Positions 32,732 to 39,128 of a DNA stretch of 64,000 nt are shown piece after piece (position 1 is the first letter of the stretch; each line of letters begins with the position of its first letter). This stretch comes from a virus. The translations under genes and the position numbers were made by a program. The stretch spans positions 1 to 64,000 of IMG/VR virus record IMGVR_UViG_3300023235_000012, one strand, 5' to 3'. Below the pieces are notes generated by a model. The model was not told the origin of the DNA. It saw only the letters and a list, made by a program, of their open reading frames with translations, and searched no databases.

Positions 32732-33023
32732 CTTTTCTTTCTCCATCAACCCAGACACCATCGTCTGTTACTTTTATTCTTTGTCCTTGGTGCTTCATCC
32801 CGTTTATTGTTGTGGAAGCTTTTCCATCGTTTGAGTTCTGCTCGACACTGAACAGATCAAACTTGTGGTCATGAAAGACCGCGTTTTTTACTGTCGGCGG
32901 CAAATCCGGGTGCCAAACATTGAGTCGAAGGTTCTTGGTAAGATAGAGCTGAACGAAACCAACACCATGGAACCGAGGTTTGTGTTCTCGTGTCCGCAAA
33001 AAATTATAATCGGCTTGTGTCAT
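32724..33023 (-). CDS. chimeric ORF: cupin-like N-terminus fused to an unrelated tail
   Basis: HGVGFVQL..RLNVWHP..FHDHKFD then abrupt change of sequence character. Confidence 0.45.
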   Translation of the reverse strand: MTQADYNFLRTREHKPRFHGVGFVQLYLTKNLRLNVWHPDLPPTVKNAVFHDHKFDLFSVEQNSNDGKASTTINGMKHQGQRIKVTDDGVWVDGERKDV

Positions 33024-34204
33024 TAGGCGAGCTCCGTCCCTCCTTTTCTCAACAAATATTTCGGACTGACGAATTTCAATTGAACTCGGCCGATAGTGTC
33101 ATCTTGACGCTCTTCTTTAGGGCGGATGACGATACCTTCACGAATGTTCGAACCACTAAAATCTTTTCCATCTCGGATTTCTGTCATCTTCTCCATAGAA
33201 AATGGTCCGCTATACAGAATAGGAACTGTCTCAATTTTCAAGCTATTAGCAAGGAAATGTAAATCAATTGGATCTAGATAACGTCCTTGGCCCGGCTTTC
33301 CAACATAAACATCAAACAATCTAAATTCAGGCATTGAGGTTCCGTAAACTAAATCCTGAACACCTCTACCGAAAACTTCTCCGAGCAGATAGATCGGCTC
33401 CGCTCGATCTGAAAGGTTAATCAGACGTTCAAGAAGATCGAAACCTTGTTCATCTCTTGAACGTTCAAGAACCTGAAGGTAAAGATTCTTTGTCATGTTT
33501 TCTTCATCCATTTCGAACGCTAAACCGCGAGCCGATAGTCCTTTACTGGAAACCACCTTGACTGCACTTGAATCTTCGTTCGGATAGAAACCATAACAGC
33601 ACCAGGTTCCGTGAAGCTTTTCTGTTACACTGACACATTCATCTTCTTTGAAGACATTGGGATAACGTTGAATGTTTTCAATGTCATATTTCAACGTCTT
33701 TCCAGATGCATTCCAAACCTTCCCAGACATTGAGGCAGGGATTGGAGGCTCATATTTGGTGACACCAAGCAAGTCAGAAACATCAACTCCAATTGCTTCT
33801 TCAAAGGCATTTTTCCCCTCAGCAATAATATATCTCTGATCAGATCCCTGAACCGTAACAAAATGATAATCATCTTCTGTTTCAATGATTACAGGCATCA
33901 AAATTCCCTGTGAAAATATTCCCCTTAATTTGATGGCCTTTACCCGATCACCTCTGGATCCAGCGAGACCACCTTTGCCTTTTTCTTCGTCCCAGAAACC
34001 CATTTTTTTCAAGAGCCATTCAGGTACTAGAGCCTGTTCTGGAATATAAACGACCAGATCATCTTTCTGATAGCGCCATGATCCATCTTCTTTCTTATTG
34101 GCGATACAATTATACCCACCAATCTTGACAATGGTCAAGCGATCTGCATCGGGATGTTCAACGACATCATCGATCCGAACCACATTAACTTCAAATTCAG
34201 CCAT
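33023..34204 (-). CDS. RNA ligase, DRB0094/Rnl5 family
   Basis: N-terminal OB (HPDADRL, LRGIFSQG), TEKLHGT, GEVFG, REGIVIRP, QLKFVS. Confidence 0.92.
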   Translation of the reverse strand: MAEFEVNVVRIDDVVEHPDADRLTIVKIGGYNCIANKKEDGSWRYQKDDLVVYIPEQALVPEWLLKKMGFWDEEKGKGGLAGSRGDRVKAIKLRGIFSQGILMPVIIETEDDYHFVTVQGSDQRYIIAEGKNAFEEAIGVDVSDLLGVTKYEPPIPASMSGKVWNASGKTLKYDIENIQRYPNVFKEDECVSVTEKLHGTWCCYGFYPNEDSSAVKVVSSKGLSARGLAFEMDEENMTKNLYLQVLERSRDEQGFDLLERLINLSDRAEPIYLLGEVFGRGVQDLVYGTSMPEFRLFDVYVGKPGQGRYLDPIDLHFLANSLKIETVPILYSGPFSMEKMTEIRDGKDFSGSNIREGIVIRPKEERQDDTIGRVQLKFVSPKYLLRKGGTELA

Positions 34205-34991: not shown

Positions 34992-35240
34992 TCATGATTT
35001 TTCTTTCTGATGTTTTGTACATAAGGCTTGATAGAATCCATTTTTTGCGTAGATCTTACCGTGATCACCACAGATTTCACATGTTCTCCTTGATAGATCT
35101 CCAATAACAGTGATGTATTCGCCGAGTTTTCCTTTATTCATAAAACCCTCGTCAGTTAGCGGTTCGGGATGATGAACATAGAATCTAAGTGATCCAAACT
35201 TTTCCTTTACCTGGCGAACATTCAAGAGAGCTATGTCCAA
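34992..35240 (-). CDS. hypothetical zinc-ribbon protein
   Basis: QVKEKFGSLRFY..CEICG..LCTKH. Confidence 0.65.
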   Translation of the reverse strand: MDIALLNVRQVKEKFGSLRFYVHHPEPLTDEGFMNKGKLGEYITVIGDLSRRTCEICGDHGKIYAKNGFYQALCTKHQKEKS

Positions 35241-35322: not shown

Positions 35323-36198
35323 TCACATCTTCTTTACAATTTTTTGATCAACAGCTGACCAAAACTTTTCAACAAAATCGTCTTCATACATGAATAATAT
35401 TTCATCGTAATTTTCCCAGGCGAAATTCCGAAACCATCCCGATGTGATGCTAGTGCAGACCTTTTTCAATGCAATCTCAAAGCTCTTTTTCGGAGGAATC
35501 TTTTCTCCATATGGAATCTGAGATCGTTCAAGGGCTAGAACGTACGACTCTTCAAGAACTCCACGGAGCCTCATGTAGTTTGAAAGATCAAAAAAGAGTT
35601 CTTCACTGCTTTGAACTTCAGCACCAGGTTTCATATAATAATGATAGGCTGGTTTATCAAAGACCTTCATTGCTTCATGAATGCTATCATGATCATATAC
35701 ATATTCTATGGTGTCCGTGAAGAAATCCTTCTTGGATTTCTTCAGATTAGGATGTTCGTAGTAATACGTTTCTTTCTTGCGTCGTTGATACCATGCTTGA
35801 TATTCAGTATGGATGGTTATACCTAATGAGCGCATTAGATGAATATCTTTCATCGTTTTAAGAAAAGCTGGGCTGTTTCTCAAAAAACGATGACTCATCT
35901 TTAGAGCATAGAGACCATTGAGACTTGCGTATTTACTGTTTCCAAAATTTCTTTTTTCAAGTTGTATGAACTCCTCGGCTGTCGAACCTTCCCAAGCTAT
36001 TTCAGCCTCGAAAATAGTTGTCCCTTTGAAAGCAACGATCTTCTTACCTTCATTAATGGGATAGCATTTATACAACTCTCCAGGAGACGATTTGATGAAA
36101 TCCATGCATTCATCGTAAGTCCCCATGATATCAATATCACGAGGAGTACGATTAATATCGCAGTAATTTCGAAGTGCATCAGATCCGACAATAAGCAC
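35323..36198 (-). CDS. putative nucleotidyltransferase (Pol-beta-like) with uncharacterised C-terminal domain
   Basis: IVGS.A..PRDIDI, FEAE, LYALKMSH; C-terminal HDSIHE and ESYVLALER. Confidence 0.72.
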   Translation of the reverse strand: MLIVGSDALRNYCDINRTPRDIDIMGTYDECMDFIKSSPGELYKCYPINEGKKIVAFKGTTIFEAEIAWEGSTAEEFIQLEKRNFGNSKYASLNGLYALKMSHRFLRNSPAFLKTMKDIHLMRSLGITIHTEYQAWYQRRKKETYYYEHPNLKKSKKDFFTDTIEYVYDHDSIHEAMKVFDKPAYHYYMKPGAEVQSSEELFFDLSNYMRLRGVLEESYVLALERSQIPYGEKIPPKKSFEIALKKVCTSITSGWFRNFAWENYDEILFMYEDDFVEKFWSAVDQKIVKKM

Positions 36199-36212
36199 GA
36201 TTTATTCCTTTC

Positions 36213-36464
36213 TTAGGAAGTACAGCCTGAATCGTCCCAGTCACTGGTTTCCCAGTCTGCTTCTTCATCATCGTCTTCATCGATCGAACAAACCGAATCA
36301 TTCCAATTGTTAACTCTAGCTGTTCTACTTTCTTTGAAGCTTTTAGGCACTTCAAAGATAAATGGAATGTTTTCTTCTTGGGCGAGTTTTGTCGCTTTGT
36401 TCAATGCTTCCGTGGCAATCCTTGAAAGTTCTTCAATCTTTGCCAAATCTTCACGCGATGCCAT
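36213..36464 (-). CDS. small acidic protein with repeated W-x-x-S motifs (paralog A)
   Basis: Helical N-terminus then WNDSVC, WETSDW, WDDSGC; 14 bp upstream of the NTase. Confidence 0.72.
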   Translation of the reverse strand: MASREDLAKIEELSRIATEALNKATKLAQEENIPFIFEVPKSFKESRTARVNNWNDSVCSIDEDDDEEADWETSDWDDSGCTS

Positions 36465-36514
36465 TTCTAATTCTTTCTCTATAAATCATTCTTAGTATGA
36501 TGATCAATATCACC

Positions 36515-36676
36515 TTAAAGTTCTAATTCTGCGGCGTTCCATCCTTCGATCCAAGGATAGAATTGTGGGTGATCTTCTGGGTAAGGACAGTAATCTTTGT
36601 TGAGTCCCTCACAGAAAGCAGTACGACCTTCCCAAAAAGCGTTGTCATCTTCGACTTCTACATAACCGCTCGACAT
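36515..36676 (-). CDS. ribosome modulation factor (Rmf)-like peptide, 53 aa
   Basis: AFWEGRTAFCEG..CPY..WIEGW pattern; AAAGGA SD; below ORF-track cutoff. Confidence 0.72.
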   Translation of the reverse strand: MSSGYVEVEDDNAFWEGRTAFCEGLNKDYCPYPEDHPQFYPWIEGWNAAELEL

Positions 36677-36703
36677 AACAAATCCTTTCCTTTATTATCC
36701 TTT

Positions 36704-36732
36704 ATTTTAACACCTATTTAGACAGAAGTCAA
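36704..36732 (-). promoter_or_regulatory. sigma70-like early promoter
   Basis: TTGACT-N17-TAAAAT with TG extension, upstream of Rmf-like gene. Confidence 0.6.
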
Positions 36733-36839
36733 GTTCTTTTTGGTTTTATTCGACGTAACAAGATATTCCGTGCTTTTATTGAAAAGCAGTCAAAATTTCT
36801 TCCTATAGAATCATTTATATTCCACTAATTCTTCAAGAC

Positions 36840-37082
36840 TTAACAACCCTGTGAAGAAGGATTCCAGAAACCTTGGCCGTCTTCGGCATCTGTATAGTCT
36901 TCATCGAATATTTCGTCACGTTCTGGATGATTGGCGCCAATATAATAGCCACCCATTCCATAAGCCGGATAAAATGAGAATTCGAGCCCATTTTCATCGG
37001 CGAAATTTTCAGCCTTTTTCAGGGCGGTGGATGCTGCTTTTACCAGTGCACTCAATTCTGCTACTTTTTCTTTGTCAGTCAT
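36840..37082 (-). CDS. small acidic protein ending WNPSSQGC (paralog B)
   Basis: ELS..A..AL.KA...A.E....F.F helix shared with 36213..36464. Confidence 0.75.
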   Translation of the reverse strand: MTDKEKVAELSALVKAASTALKKAENFADENGLEFSFYPAYGMGGYYIGANHPERDEIFDEDYTDAEDGQGFWNPSSQGC

Positions 37083-37398
37083 TTGTTTCTTCCTTGTCTG
37101 TTAATTTGATTTGAAGTTCCTTCACTTCTCTTTCTAATCTTTCTGTCTTCTTCTTAGCCTTTTCGAGCTCTTCTTCTAGCAACTCGGTGTGGCTAACGGC
37201 ACCGGCTTTAACAATCTTGAGTTCAATCAATAATTCTCGAAACTTTCCTTTCCATTTTCGAAGATCTTCAAGCATTTCATTATTTGCTTCAATCAATTCT
37301 TTTGCTCTTTGTGAACTTAATTTCTTCACGGAAGCTAATTCTTCAGAAGGAGTCAATAAATGTTCCACTTTTTGTTCTTCTTTCTTCTTACCAAACAT
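37075..37398 (-). CDS. coiled-coil hypothetical protein
   Basis: K/E-rich heptads. Confidence 0.6.
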   Translation of the reverse strand: MFGKKKEEQKVEHLLTPSEELASVKKLSSQRAKELIEANNEMLEDLRKWKGKFRELLIELKIVKAGAVSHTELLEEELEKAKKKTERLEREVKELQIKLTDKEETND

Positions 37399-37998: not shown

Positions 37999-38889
37999 TC
38001 ACCTGTGACATTTGATAATTTCTTCAAGTTCTCGAACCAATCGGCCGTGCTTATCTTCTTCGCTAACCGCGGCACTCAGACTTCCGTAATGAATTTCCAA
38101 ACATTCCAATAGCAAGGTTTTAATCTTCTCTTCGTCAGGTTTGATCGGCAGAGTGCTATTGGCGAACAAAGTCTCCAAGCTCTTTTCCTTCTCATCTGCC
38201 CACGTATTGAGTTTTTCGAGACTCCATTCGCCTCTCCGAATAGCTCGATAAACTTCACCATCACGGTCGAGAACCAAATCACCAGTGCTCAGGATCTGCT
38301 CTGCTTCTAGCAGCAGCCGTACGACATGGTATCCGAATTTCAGATCCCAGCCATGCTCGTCAATGCTTGCCTGGCGTTTAGGGTTAGCTCTGTTGCTGCC
38401 CTTATTGATCTTGCTCATCTGTGAAAAGCTATATCCTCGAAATTTATGATACGCCCCTTTGTGAAGGAACATCTTCCTCTTTTCACGAATCCGTTCATAG
38501 ATTTCCGTACTATGAAGCACACAGCGTCGAGGCAGGAACAGGTTGTCCACCATGTTTGGGTTGTTTTCCATTACAAGATTAAAGAACTTAACGATGCTGA
38601 AAATCGTCAGATCGTATTCTTTCCGTTCTTCAGGAACCTTAATATGATGCTGCTGATATTGATAAAATCGTTTGATCTGTCGACCAAAGCCTGGAATTTC
38701 ACCCGCAAGATGGGGGAAAACTAGGCCCTTAGGCGGCATACAAAAACCAACGATATCAACATCACTGTTATCAGTGCTTGCACCATAAGCAACACTCCCG
38801 GTCCAACCTTCAAACATCGTGTTGTTAGGCAACCAAGCCGGAGCGTTGATCAAATTCTTGTTAGACAGTTTGGCTAGTACGCTTGCCAT
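37999..38889 (-). CDS. nucleotidyltransferase, YcgL/RlaP-like
   Basis: GSVAYG.STDNSDVDI.G, NNPN, KFGYHVVRLL. Confidence 0.85.
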   Translation of the reverse strand: MASVLAKLSNKNLINAPAWLPNNTMFEGWTGSVAYGASTDNSDVDIVGFCMPPKGLVFPHLAGEIPGFGRQIKRFYQYQQHHIKVPEERKEYDLTIFSIVKFFNLVMENNPNMVDNLFLPRRCVLHSTEIYERIREKRKMFLHKGAYHKFRGYSFSQMSKINKGSNRANPKRQASIDEHGWDLKFGYHVVRLLLEAEQILSTGDLVLDRDGEVYRAIRRGEWSLEKLNTWADEKEKSLETLFANSTLPIKPDEEKIKTLLLECLEIHYGSLSAAVSEEDKHGRLVRELEEIIKCHR

Positions 38890-39128
38890 TTTAATCTTTT
38901 CTCGCTGCAATCATATGTTTGAAATCAAACTTTGGAATTAAATCTGGATTCTCAAATCAAGGGTTACAAACCGATAATCGTCATCGTCTTCGCAACAGAC
39001 AGTAAGTGCCTTGCCAAAGTCTTCGTACATTGCTTCGATTAAATTGGTCATTGACTTTCTCCTTCATCTTATTCATTATAGTAACACAACCAGGAGATTT
39101 GTCAAGCGTTATTTTCGATTATTTTCGA

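Follow-up and report, generated by a model that had tools for sequence, protein, structure and literature searches.

A conserved phage module of two parts is present once in the 64,000-nt window, the whole stretch of DNA analysed here. The first part is a nucleotidyltransferase-fold enzyme of 291 amino acids with a GTG start (35323..36198, minus strand), in which DUF7277 spans residues 1-76 and DUF7275 residues 96-272. The second part comprises, across phages, one to six small acidic proteins (hereafter referred to as Cys-tailed proteins), which are encoded mostly on the same strand and just upstream of the enzyme. Two are present in the window: pA (83 aa, pI 4.1; 36213..36464, minus strand) and pB (80 aa, pI 4.2; 36840..37082, minus strand). 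The first-pass annotation had listed these ORFs and all were found at the same positions, with pA adjoining the enzyme. The pA stop codon and the enzyme GTG are 14 nt apart, with AAAGGAA between them, and pA is probably translationally coupled to the enzyme. The families to which the window genes belong, phrog_2141 (enzyme), phrog_899 (small proteins), DUF7277 and DUF7275, are each annotated as of function unknown; neither PADLOC nor NCBIfam gave a match for the enzyme, pA or pB.

A 53-aa Rmf-like gene lies between pB and pA (36515-36676). As had been noted earlier, the gene is real: it matches NCBIfam Rmf_CrpP_fam (NF041886; 30.1 bits, cut-off 28, E 2.7e-7) and falls under the Pfam RMF cut-off (18.6 versus 27.9). 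However, it is not part of the module, with 0 homologues in the other loci scanned. A 107-aa coiled-coil ORF (37075-37398) and two ORFs downstream of the enzyme were also rejected as module parts, because they have no homologue in other loci. A sigma-70-like promoter candidate (TTGACT-17-TAAAAT with TG; 36704..36732, minus strand) lies ahead of the Rmf-like gene, pA and the enzyme; it has 10 of 12 consensus matches, and the region holds 11 such sites against 8.2 expected from shuffling, which is no real excess. The module is flanked by an RNA ligase (33023-34204) and a RlaP nucleotidyltransferase (37999-38910), both recognised by Pfam. In the part available, PMC7824862 covers RlaP plus other nucleotidyltransferases, and not the DUF7277/DUF7275 family.

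The Cys-tailed proteins

Proteins of the phrog_899 family have a helix at the N terminus, continue through an acidic middle that varies between members, and normally finish with the tail W-x-x-S-x(1-3)-C. With a median pI of 4.4 and a median net charge of -8, they are strongly acidic. W-x-x-S is present in 158 of 159 unique family members and 143 of the 159 end in Cys, which is more than chance would give; the invariant positions cluster in this very short nucleophilic motif, which follows the variable acidic stretch. pB is a canonical member, with both a phrog_899 match and the terminal motif W73-N-P-S76-S77-Q-G-C80 directly followed by the stop codon (36843..36866, minus strand); W73 and S76 are invariant and C80 is at least 90% conserved in alignment A2. 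Among the 472 ORFs of the window, one has the strict terminal motif. pA is a divergent member with a weak profile match. Its tail (36222..36305, minus strand) carries WNDSVC (36288-36305) and WETSDWDDSGC (36222-36254), the latter comprising WETSDW and WDDSGC. It counts two complete W-x-x-S-x(0-3)-C motifs, both internal, and the protein is not Cys-ended but terminates in ...GCTS. The repeated core proposed by the first-pass annotation is thus present in pA, but it is a rare variant: two complete motifs occur in 7 of 212 unique members, the usual layout being one motif at the very C terminus. An internal W-x-x-S was followed by Cys in 9 of 50 cases (about 3% expected), and duplications of the motif sometimes include the Cys.

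pA and pB are paralogous, as had been proposed. BLASTP aligned them over the N-terminal helix region (19 of 68 residues identical, 28%; E 7e-4), and each matched the C-terminal part of phrog_899 (pB, E 2.1e-18; pA, E 3.2e-4) as well as the family HMM (pB, E 4.5e-21; pA, E 2.8e-7), with pA also matching the A2 profile (E 1.0e-15). The family HMM finds no further member in the 64-kb window, nor anywhere else in the 137,267-base record. pB is nearer to proteins of other phages (51-53% identity) than to pA. Using tblastn, matches to pB were found in 130 phage records and matches to pA in no phage record, and a word-indexed homologue search with pB returned just 3 proteins. The family is too divergent for these two kinds of search, and profile and motif scans were therefore used. 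Pfam gave no match for pA or pB.

In its AlphaFold2 model (pLDDT 84.5), pB is composed of a helix (residues 3-31) and two strands (45-48 and 72-75), and the tail strand is packed on the YGMGG segment and strand 45-48 (pLDDT 67-79 as means of 10-residue blocks). pB is thus predicted to be a small folded protein, the tail of which is not a free peptide in the model, and the invariant Trp could therefore be structural. A VIA search with this model returned single helices only (best Z 4.5), a protein atlas search gave no match at >=0.9, and the A2 profile matched only designed helical proteins among solved chains.

A layout of leader plus modified core had been suggested for the two proteins. In RiPP clusters such as those of lanthipeptides, many precursors are served by one synthetase. 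The module resembles such clusters in that short, tandem paralogous genes adjoin one putative modifying enzyme, the tail conserves Ser and Cys, and the conserved N-terminal helix could be a leader. Maturation of this kind, in which the small proteins would be precursors from whose C terminus a processed core peptide is cleaved and set free, is nevertheless very improbable. The loci share no conserved RiPP-type protease, exporter, RRE or known maturase family, and the products look like folded proteins of 60-110 aa. Moreover, the tail is conserved and the part between helix and tail is variable, the reverse of the usual RiPP logic of conserved leader and variable core. The characterised carriers among those listed are also all large tailed phages, which we take to be lytic. 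A literature search combining RiPP, nucleotidyltransferase and bacteriophage found nothing related to the module.

Linkage of the two parts across phages

Co-occurrence of the nucleotidyltransferase family with small W-x-x-S...C ORFs, the check proposed in the first-pass annotation, is strong in both directions and is found in other phages. In an enzyme-centred set of 80 viral loci (8,496 ORFs), ORFs ending in W-x-x-S-x(1-3)-C are present in 74 loci; there are 167 such ORFs, of which 164 lie on the enzyme's strand, and in 68 of the 80 loci one of them is on that strand and ends at most 3 kb upstream. Among the 75 loci with 1.5 kb or more of sequence upstream, the iterated family HMM placed a member within 2 kb in 63, and matches were distributed very unevenly (141 upstream versus 10 downstream of the enzyme). 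The nearest upstream member ends at most 60 nt before the enzyme in 36 of the 63 loci that have one. In the opposite direction, starting from the YGMGG motif of the small proteins, the enzyme lies downstream on the same strand in 42 of 44 loci; the other two are contig ends, which stop less than 0.9 kb past the small gene. The same layout was seen in annotated phages of six lineages (6/6). Three of the 80 loci (L055, L074 and L076) have full flanks and no partner. The gene linkage is thus close to obligate.

The linkage is not block synteny, because in BLAST clustering the small family reaches 63 of the 80 loci and the next families just 13, one of these being another Cys-tailed branch; no third gene family is common to more than 13 loci. 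Each locus holds 1 to 6 diverged copies of the small gene, and copy number and middle regions differ between phages. Such variation, together with the strong acidity of the proteins and the early-type sigma-70-like promoter candidate that precedes the unit, would suit host-directed effectors (acidic decoys or nucleic-acid mimics, with a tail that binds a host protein) that share only an early transcription unit with the enzyme and are chemically independent of it. We consider this improbable. Co-transcription alone cannot explain linkage across such different neighbourhoods, the presence of the enzyme in the loci seeded with the small proteins would be left without explanation, and no family member lies away from the enzyme in the record. 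Because the pairing is kept in nearly every phage that carries the enzyme, the enzyme and the small proteins very probably cooperate.

A putative fused form was found once: in P0004, a pA-like part is in frame with the enzyme, and pA is 36% identical to the N-terminal 72 residues (E 8e-12). A Rosetta-stone argument from P0004 was set aside, as it is a singleton on one contig of 3,754 bases and 0 of the 139 enzyme ORFs in the loci are fused. A complex prediction for the enzyme (A1) and pB (A2), run without controls, gave ipSAE values of 0.00 and 0.00 (mark 0.32) and speaks neither for nor against binding.

The enzyme family is common, being present in 733 of 50,697 phage records and in 1,307 representative clusters of metagenomic protein space. 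It is carried by phages; all nine matches (9/9) in 185,579 species genomes are on MAG or bin contigs. Carriers include T4-like coliphages, Phapecoctavirus, and Acinetobacter, Pseudomonas and jumbo phages, and E. coli phages that can be cultured are among the carriers of the module. A literature search found no published account of the pairing, and a full-text search found no paper naming DUF7275, DUF7277, phrog_899, phrog_2141, PF23940 or PF23942, although supplementary files might list them. The module is also absent from the titles and abstract openings of the MenT/AbiEii and phage-encoded nucleotidyltransferase papers among the matches listed. A near-constant partner family with a C-terminal Trp/Ser/Cys tail as its sole invariant feature points to a specific chemistry, which is unstudied in the literature found.

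The enzyme and its structural relatives

The enzyme matches DUF7277 (E 7e-11, 43.1 bits) and DUF7275 (E 9.2e-69, 231.6 bits; cut-offs 27), and phrog_2141 across residues 1-290 (E 3.1e-101). The Pol-beta nucleotidyltransferase signature reads hG[GS]-x(9-14)-D-x-[DE], and its counterpart in the enzyme is G5-S6-x14-D21-I-D23 (36130..36186, minus strand). In an alignment of 66 homologues (A1; 39-53% identity to the window's enzyme), G5, D21 and D23 are invariant and S6 and E64 are at least 90% conserved, E64 being the third carboxylate, on strand 61-67 of the model. Also invariant are K100, H103, E216, E217, E224 and R225, and H170, D171 and H174 of the DUF7275 segment H170-D171-S-I-H174 (35677..35691, minus strand). 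The AlphaFold2 model (mean pLDDT 95.9) has the alpha/beta nucleotidyltransferase fold, with residues 1-131 aligning to ANT(2'') (Z 9.0), LnuA (Z 7.6) and JHP933 (Z 7.8). Conservation, model and structural matches thus agree with the GS..DxD nucleotidyltransferase core described in the first-pass annotation; the enzyme, as judged from them, retains a complete Pol-beta-type catalytic set and is predicted to be active.

The best solved match in the VIA search was MenT1 (8an4_A; Z 10.0, r.m.s.d. 4.4, 148 residues aligned), and TglT/MenT3 (6j7n_A, Z 8.8) and MenT4 (6y56_A, Z 8.1) were also retrieved. As in MenT and AbiEii proteins, the nucleotidyltransferase core of the enzyme precedes a C-terminal domain built of helices. 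At the sequence level it differs from them: neither phmmer nor the A1 profile matched any solved chain (none at E <= 10 for the profile), and 0 of the 66 A1 members match Pfam AbiEii/DUF1814 at E <= 1. Foldseek against the PDB likewise gave nothing at E <= 1e-3, the top entry being MenT1 (8an5_B, 2.2e-3). According to the available part of PMC7450476, DUF1814/AbiEii/MenT proteins have four motifs, of which I and II are of Pol-beta type, III is tRNA-nucleotidyltransferase-like and IV is unique to the family. Motifs I and II are present in the enzyme; K100-x-S-H-R and the later invariant residues may be motifs III and IV, a correspondence proposed without residue-by-residue alignment. The extra 'HDSIHE' domain reported earlier is DUF7275, and the MenT matches run into it (model residues 1-264). 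An HD-phosphohydrolase assignment for its H...HD...H residues was set aside, as residues 154-286 alone reached at most Z 4.1, with no HD domain among the matches listed.

The relationship to MenT suggests that the enzyme might act on RNA (for example on tRNA 3' ends, as MenT does) and that the small proteins, docked on it by their N-terminal helix, serve to inhibit, stimulate or redirect it, in the manner of an antitoxin. This is the main rival to the reading that we prefer, and we regard it as unlikely. It is in keeping with the top structural matches, with the flanking RNA-repair genes and with the position of the small genes, since MenAT1, too, pairs the enzyme gene with one for a small helical protein, the antitoxin gene lying directly upstream of the toxin gene. 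The close coupling of small gene and enzyme fits as well (14 nt for pA; at most 60 nt in many loci), as does the confidently predicted helix of about 30 residues in pB, which recalls residues 1-32 of MenA1, the active part of that antitoxin in the portion of PMC11375011 that was available. Enzyme homologues without such partners also exist: three distant ones, from Streptomyces, Gordonia and Vibrio phages, share 25-33% identity and the same catalytic residues, retain even H170, D171 and H174, and have a Cys-tailed ORF within 4 kb in 0/3 cases. DUF7275 proteins occur in giant viruses too. Some other substrate, RNA for instance, is therefore probable for the enzyme core, either now or in the past.

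By contrast, antitoxins are typically paired one-to-one with toxins, whereas here up to six diverged paralogues accompany a single phage-carried enzyme, each with the invariant tail; we know of no W-x-x-S...C tail in MenA antitoxins. The invariant residues of the small proteins lie in the C-terminal tail and not in the helix, the enzyme family, with a median pI of 6.0, is mildly acidic, and the lack of AbiEii/DUF1814 matches also argues against an antitoxin-like role. In the available part of PMC11375011, MenT1 moves phosphate from a bound nucleotide onto a protein hydroxyl group, and the phosphoacceptor is T39, just before D-x-D. The equivalent position in the enzyme, two residues before D21, is Pro19 in a by-eye alignment on DxD, with a family consensus of R-x-P-x-D-x-D; most enzymes checked have Pro there, and Thr occurs in four members of one sub-clade (L077, L087, L097 and L098). 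If the small proteins were regulators, the module would be a case of phages deploying a MenT-like RNA-modifying enzyme themselves instead of being its target.

Putative modification of the tail

The reading that we prefer, with a probability of about 0.45, is that the small proteins are clients of the enzyme and are modified on their tails. It is favoured because the catalytic residues are kept, the linkage runs both ways, one enzyme accompanies many diverged copies and the invariance of these copies is concentrated in a nucleophilic tail; the joining of a pA-like part to the enzyme in P0004 and the precedent of phosphate transfer to a protein hydroxyl by MenT1 (PMC11375011, in the part available) point the same way. 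Against it speak the predicted packing of the pB tail, the distant enzyme homologues that lack partners, the three fully flanked loci with no partner and the single occurrence of the fused form. The N-terminal helix and small folded part of the client would dock on the enzyme, which would use NTP to modify the tail W-x-x-S-x(1-3)-C. The invariant Ser would most likely be O-nucleotidylated or O-phosphorylated; the Trp would anchor recognition, and the Cys would provide another group for reaction or recognition. Once modified, the acidic proteins would engage host targets at an early stage of infection. In the window, pB would be the canonical client and pA a divergent client with two motifs. 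If so, both the protein modification and this class of phage effectors would be new. Nucleotidylation on Ser/Cys, a protein-primer role and an anti-defence function, as suggested in the first-pass annotation, are likewise putative.

Modification of a partner protein by an enzyme of nucleotidyltransferase fold is known from MntA-HepT and GlnD-PII, in which a Pol-beta-fold enzyme acts on a side-chain hydroxyl of a dedicated small partner encoded nearby. The module differs from both in that its partners have neither a HEPN nor a PII fold (no Pfam match, and structural matches to a single helix), in that the candidate acceptor is Ser in the W-x-x-S...C tail and not Tyr, and in that there are several partners per enzyme. 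A literature search on protein nucleotidylation and bacteriophages found nothing related to the module.

A more specific proposal, which we find doubtful, is that lytic phages encode a dedicated protein-tail-modifying system, in which the MenT-like nucleotidyltransferase recognises the helix of its 1 to 6 clients and activates the tail Ser with a nucleotide. The Ser would then keep a stable O-NMP or oligonucleotide tag, or would undergo elimination and be attacked by the nearby Cys to form a thioether ring, and the modified acidic clients would be effectors of early host takeover or anti-defence. Tail modification would then be a class of post-translational modification for which no enzyme of the nucleotidyltransferase fold has been described.

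Cys248 of the enzyme is nearly invariant. Its pairing with the partner Cys was rejected as a strict rule: 94 enzymes have both Cys248 and a partner, and 8 have a partner but Ala or Ser at this position, so that a fixed Cys-Cys relay is unlikely.

Gene layout in the window

Every element listed in the first-pass annotation was recovered at its coordinates by an ORF list and a translation check, within an IMG/VR virus record of 137,267 bases. All genes described here lie on the minus strand. First in transcription order is a 107-aa coiled-coil ORF (37075-37398), which matches no Pfam or PHROG family and shares 8 nt at its end (ATGACTGA) with the start of the gene for the 80-aa small protein pB (36840-37082). 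Phage nieznany has a different 96-aa gene (phrog_4991) that likewise overlaps its first small gene. The 163-nt gap after pB holds a candidate sigma-70-like site found by a site scan (TTGACT-17-TAAAAT, minus strand). The second small protein, pA (36213-36464; 83 aa), adjoins the enzyme gene on its upstream side at a spacing of 14 nt, and AAAGGAA precedes the GTG start of the 291-aa enzyme (35323-36198).

A 53-aa Rmf/CrpP-family gene (36515-36676; NF041886, 30.1 bits, cut-off 28) is inserted between the pB and pA genes, the sigma-70-like site just described being its own promoter candidate. Its product is acidic (pI 4.05), which is odd for an Rmf copy since cellular Rmf is basic. Directly 3' of the enzyme, an 82-aa ORF (34992-35240) carries a C-x-x-C ... 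C-x-x-H pattern resembling a zinc ribbon and matched no family in Pfam or PHROG. None of the other loci scanned has a homologue of the Rmf-like gene, of the 107-aa ORF or of either of the two ORFs that follow the enzyme; we therefore ruled these four out as parts of the module and regard them as local insertions. RNA-repair genes stand on either side: an RNA ligase with a PHA02142 OB domain (33023-34204; PF09414, E 1.1e-22) and an RlaP-family nucleotidyltransferase (37999-38910; PF10127, E 1.6e-16). Erwinia phage Kaldavass and Streptomyces phage Beuffert likewise have an RNA ligase close to the enzyme.

Fold and conservation of the enzyme

The enzyme matches DUF7277 (residues 1-76, E 7e-11), DUF7275 (residues 96-272, E 9.2e-69) and phrog_2141 (E 3.1e-101), all annotated as of unknown function, and an exhaustive profile-free search related it to 1,307 representative clusters at E ≤ 1e-3. 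Across 66 aligned homologues, 39-53% identical to the window enzyme, residues G5, D21, D23, K100, H103, H170, D171, H174, E216, E217, E224 and R225 are invariant, and conservation is at least 90% at S6, E64 and C248. These residues form a Pol-beta signature, GS-x14-DxD...E, and beyond it lies a second domain that is also densely conserved.

A confident AlphaFold2 model (pLDDT 95.9, pTM 0.91) gave no PDB match at E ≤ 1e-3 in Foldseek, the best being MenT1 (8an5_B, 2.2e-3). In an exhaustive structural search, the top match was again MenT1 (8an4_A; Z 10.0, r.m.s.d. 4.4, 148 residues aligned, model range 1-264), followed by ANT(2'') (Z 9.0), TglT/MenT3 (Z 8.8) and MenT4 (Z 8.1), and by JHP933, a Megavirus poly(A) polymerase and LnuA. 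These matches identify the protein as a nucleotidyltransferase-fold enzyme, with the DUF1814 tRNA-modifying toxins nearest to it among solved structures. At the sequence level, none of the 66 homologues matches the DUF1814 family at E ≤ 1, and the enzyme matches no PDB chain. Unlike MenT1, in which T39 is the phosphoacceptor according to PMC11375011, the enzyme has a proline at that position when the two are aligned by eye.

The partner family and its linkage to the enzyme

An intact nucleotidyltransferase core is accompanied by a near-constant partner family in which invariance is confined to a Trp/Ser/Cys tail. The two window members, pA and pB, are 28% identical across the N-terminal helix (E 7e-4), and both match the C-terminal part of phrog_899. 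They are the only matches in the 64-kb window to a family hidden Markov model (HMM) built iteratively from fetched enzyme loci, and the only matches in the entire 137,267-base record to a profile of pB-type proteins. In 159 unique members, an amphipathic helix of about 30 residues is followed by a G-h-x-F segment, often also by YGMGG-x-Y, and then by a variable acidic stretch (median pI 4.4 and net charge -8 for the family). The tail Trp and the Ser three residues on hardly vary, each being present in 169 of 171 aligned sequences. Cys is the last residue in 143/159 members. The last Trp stands 8 residues from the C-terminus in 112 members (W-x-x-S-S-x-x-C) and 6 residues from it in 36 (W-x-S-S-x-C); just one Cys is present in 113 of 212 unique members. 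pB is canonical (…FWNPSSQGC). pA, with two complete short motifs (WNDSVC and WDDSGC), one partial motif and the C-terminus …GCTS, is a rare variant, two complete motifs occurring in 7/212 members. Internal W-x-x-S is followed by Cys within four residues in 9/50 cases against about 3% expected, so the motif tends to duplicate as a unit. In the pB model (pLDDT 84.5), helix 3-31 precedes a strand (45-48) paired with a second strand (72-75), and the tail packs back onto the YGMGG segment with moderate confidence; against solved folds, pB matched nothing beyond a single helix. That the tail is a RiPP-like released peptide is highly improbable.

Co-occurrence of the enzyme with such small ORFs across phages, proposed as a check in the first-pass annotation, was borne out from both sides. 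We retained the best 80 of 218 viral stretches encoding an enzyme relative, with 6-kb flanks, and scanned them without homology for ORFs of at least 35 aa ending W-x-x-S-x(1-3)-C. Such ORFs numbered 167 of 8,496, spread over 74/80 loci; 164 of the 167 lie on the enzyme's strand, and nearly all end ≤ 1.5 kb upstream. Under the strictest rule (same strand, upstream, with an end ≤ 3 kb from the enzyme ORF as called), 68/80 loci carry one. Among the other 12, three have < 400 nt of upstream sequence (L011, L026 and L036), one is a technical failure in which the enzyme ORF was called too long (L025), three have copies downstream only (L033, L040 and L082), two have the Cys near rather than at the end and are both HMM matches (L027 and L067), and three have no tail-motif ORF (L055, L074 and L076). 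An HMM member lies ≤ 2 kb upstream in 63 of the 75 loci with at least 1.5 kb of upstream sequence, and all 151 HMM matches are on the enzyme's strand (141 upstream, 10 downstream). Upstream copies in these 75 loci number none (12 loci), one (18), two (23), three (16), four (2), five (3) or six (1). At one locus (L066:4453-5999, plus strand), five small ORFs directly ahead of the enzyme, the second overlapping the first, each end F-W-[IV]-P-S-S-M-[ES]-C; this array was missed by the iterated HMM and detected by the motif scan alone.

A scan seeded with the YGMGG motif only yielded 44 loci, with the enzyme downstream on the same strand in 42, many of these contigs overlapping the enzyme-seeded set, so that the two scans are only partly independent of each other; in the remaining two, the sequence stops < 0.9 kb past the small gene. 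Annotated phages chosen by a pB match have the enzyme 0.6-1.8 kb downstream in 6/6 cases (Phapecoctavirus nieznany, Otagovirus PHB09, Dhakavirus JS10, Hadassahvirus AbTZA1, Pseudomonas phage vB_PpS_SYP and the jumbo Erwinia phage Kaldavass). Among 185,579 species genomes, the enzyme is on only 9 contigs, all from metagenome bins, and 7 of them carry the partner. All-against-all BLAST clustering of same-strand ORFs made the small family the sole broad co-occurrer (63/80 loci), the next families, one of them another Cys-tailed branch, reaching 13/80; conservation of a larger syntenic block thus does not account for the pairing. Mere co-expression of enzyme and small proteins appears improbable; this explanation and the released-peptide one are both less likely than the two considered below.

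Clients or regulators

We tentatively favour the small proteins as clients whose tail the enzyme would modify, at a probability of roughly 45%. One enzyme serves one to six partners that diverged long ago (pB shares 51-53% identity with other phages' proteins, against 28% with pA), the universal partner residues are only a recognition-type aromatic and two nucleophiles at the extreme C-terminus, and the motif can duplicate within the tail. The closest structural relative, MenT1, also points this way, being able to transfer phosphate to a protein hydroxyl group according to PMC11375011.

The main alternative, that the small proteins are MenA1-like regulators of an RNA-directed enzyme, is unlikely. 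It would suit the fold match to MenT toxins, the gene order, the N-terminal helix and the flanking RNA ligase and RlaP genes, but it sits poorly with several partners per enzyme, conservation centred on the tail and the missing phosphoacceptor. A distant enzyme clade lacking partners would also fit regulation. The enzyme is present in 733 of 50,697 phage records, and three distant homologues (Streptomyces phage Beuffert, Gordonia phage Culver and Vibrio phage CZ01; 25-33% identical, about 250-263 aa) have no Cys-tailed ORF or HMM match within 4 kb. They retain K100, H103, H170, D171, H174, E216, E217, E224 and R225. BFVD matches to the enzyme model include giant-virus proteins (Sylvanvirus and Satyrvirus) that carry a DUF7275 domain and measure 508 and 571 aa, so the fold is not phage-restricted. 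Together, these homologues indicate that the catalytic core is older than the partnership or functional without it, which weakens the idea of the small proteins as the only possible substrate.

The nearest representative among metagenome proteins (P0004; 377 aa, 53% identity) joins, in one reading frame, the enzyme and a pA-like part that bears two tail motifs; as a lone singleton on a 3,754-base contig, it could be a true fusion or the product of a lost stop codon.

A nucleotidyltransferase with a dedicated small partner is likewise found in MenAT, and also in MNT-HEPN and GlnD-PII. Relative to these systems, the novelty lies in the partner family, its tail motif and copy number, and a distribution restricted to phages, and a full-text literature search returned no paper naming these families or describing the pairing. 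The bolder reading, that the module represents a new tail-modification chemistry, is rather doubtful. PADLOC gave no match for the window enzyme; in Acinetobacter phage phi1_092060 (PQ885451.1, 92659-93225), the depositor's label for the enzyme homologue is 'DefenseFinder protein'.
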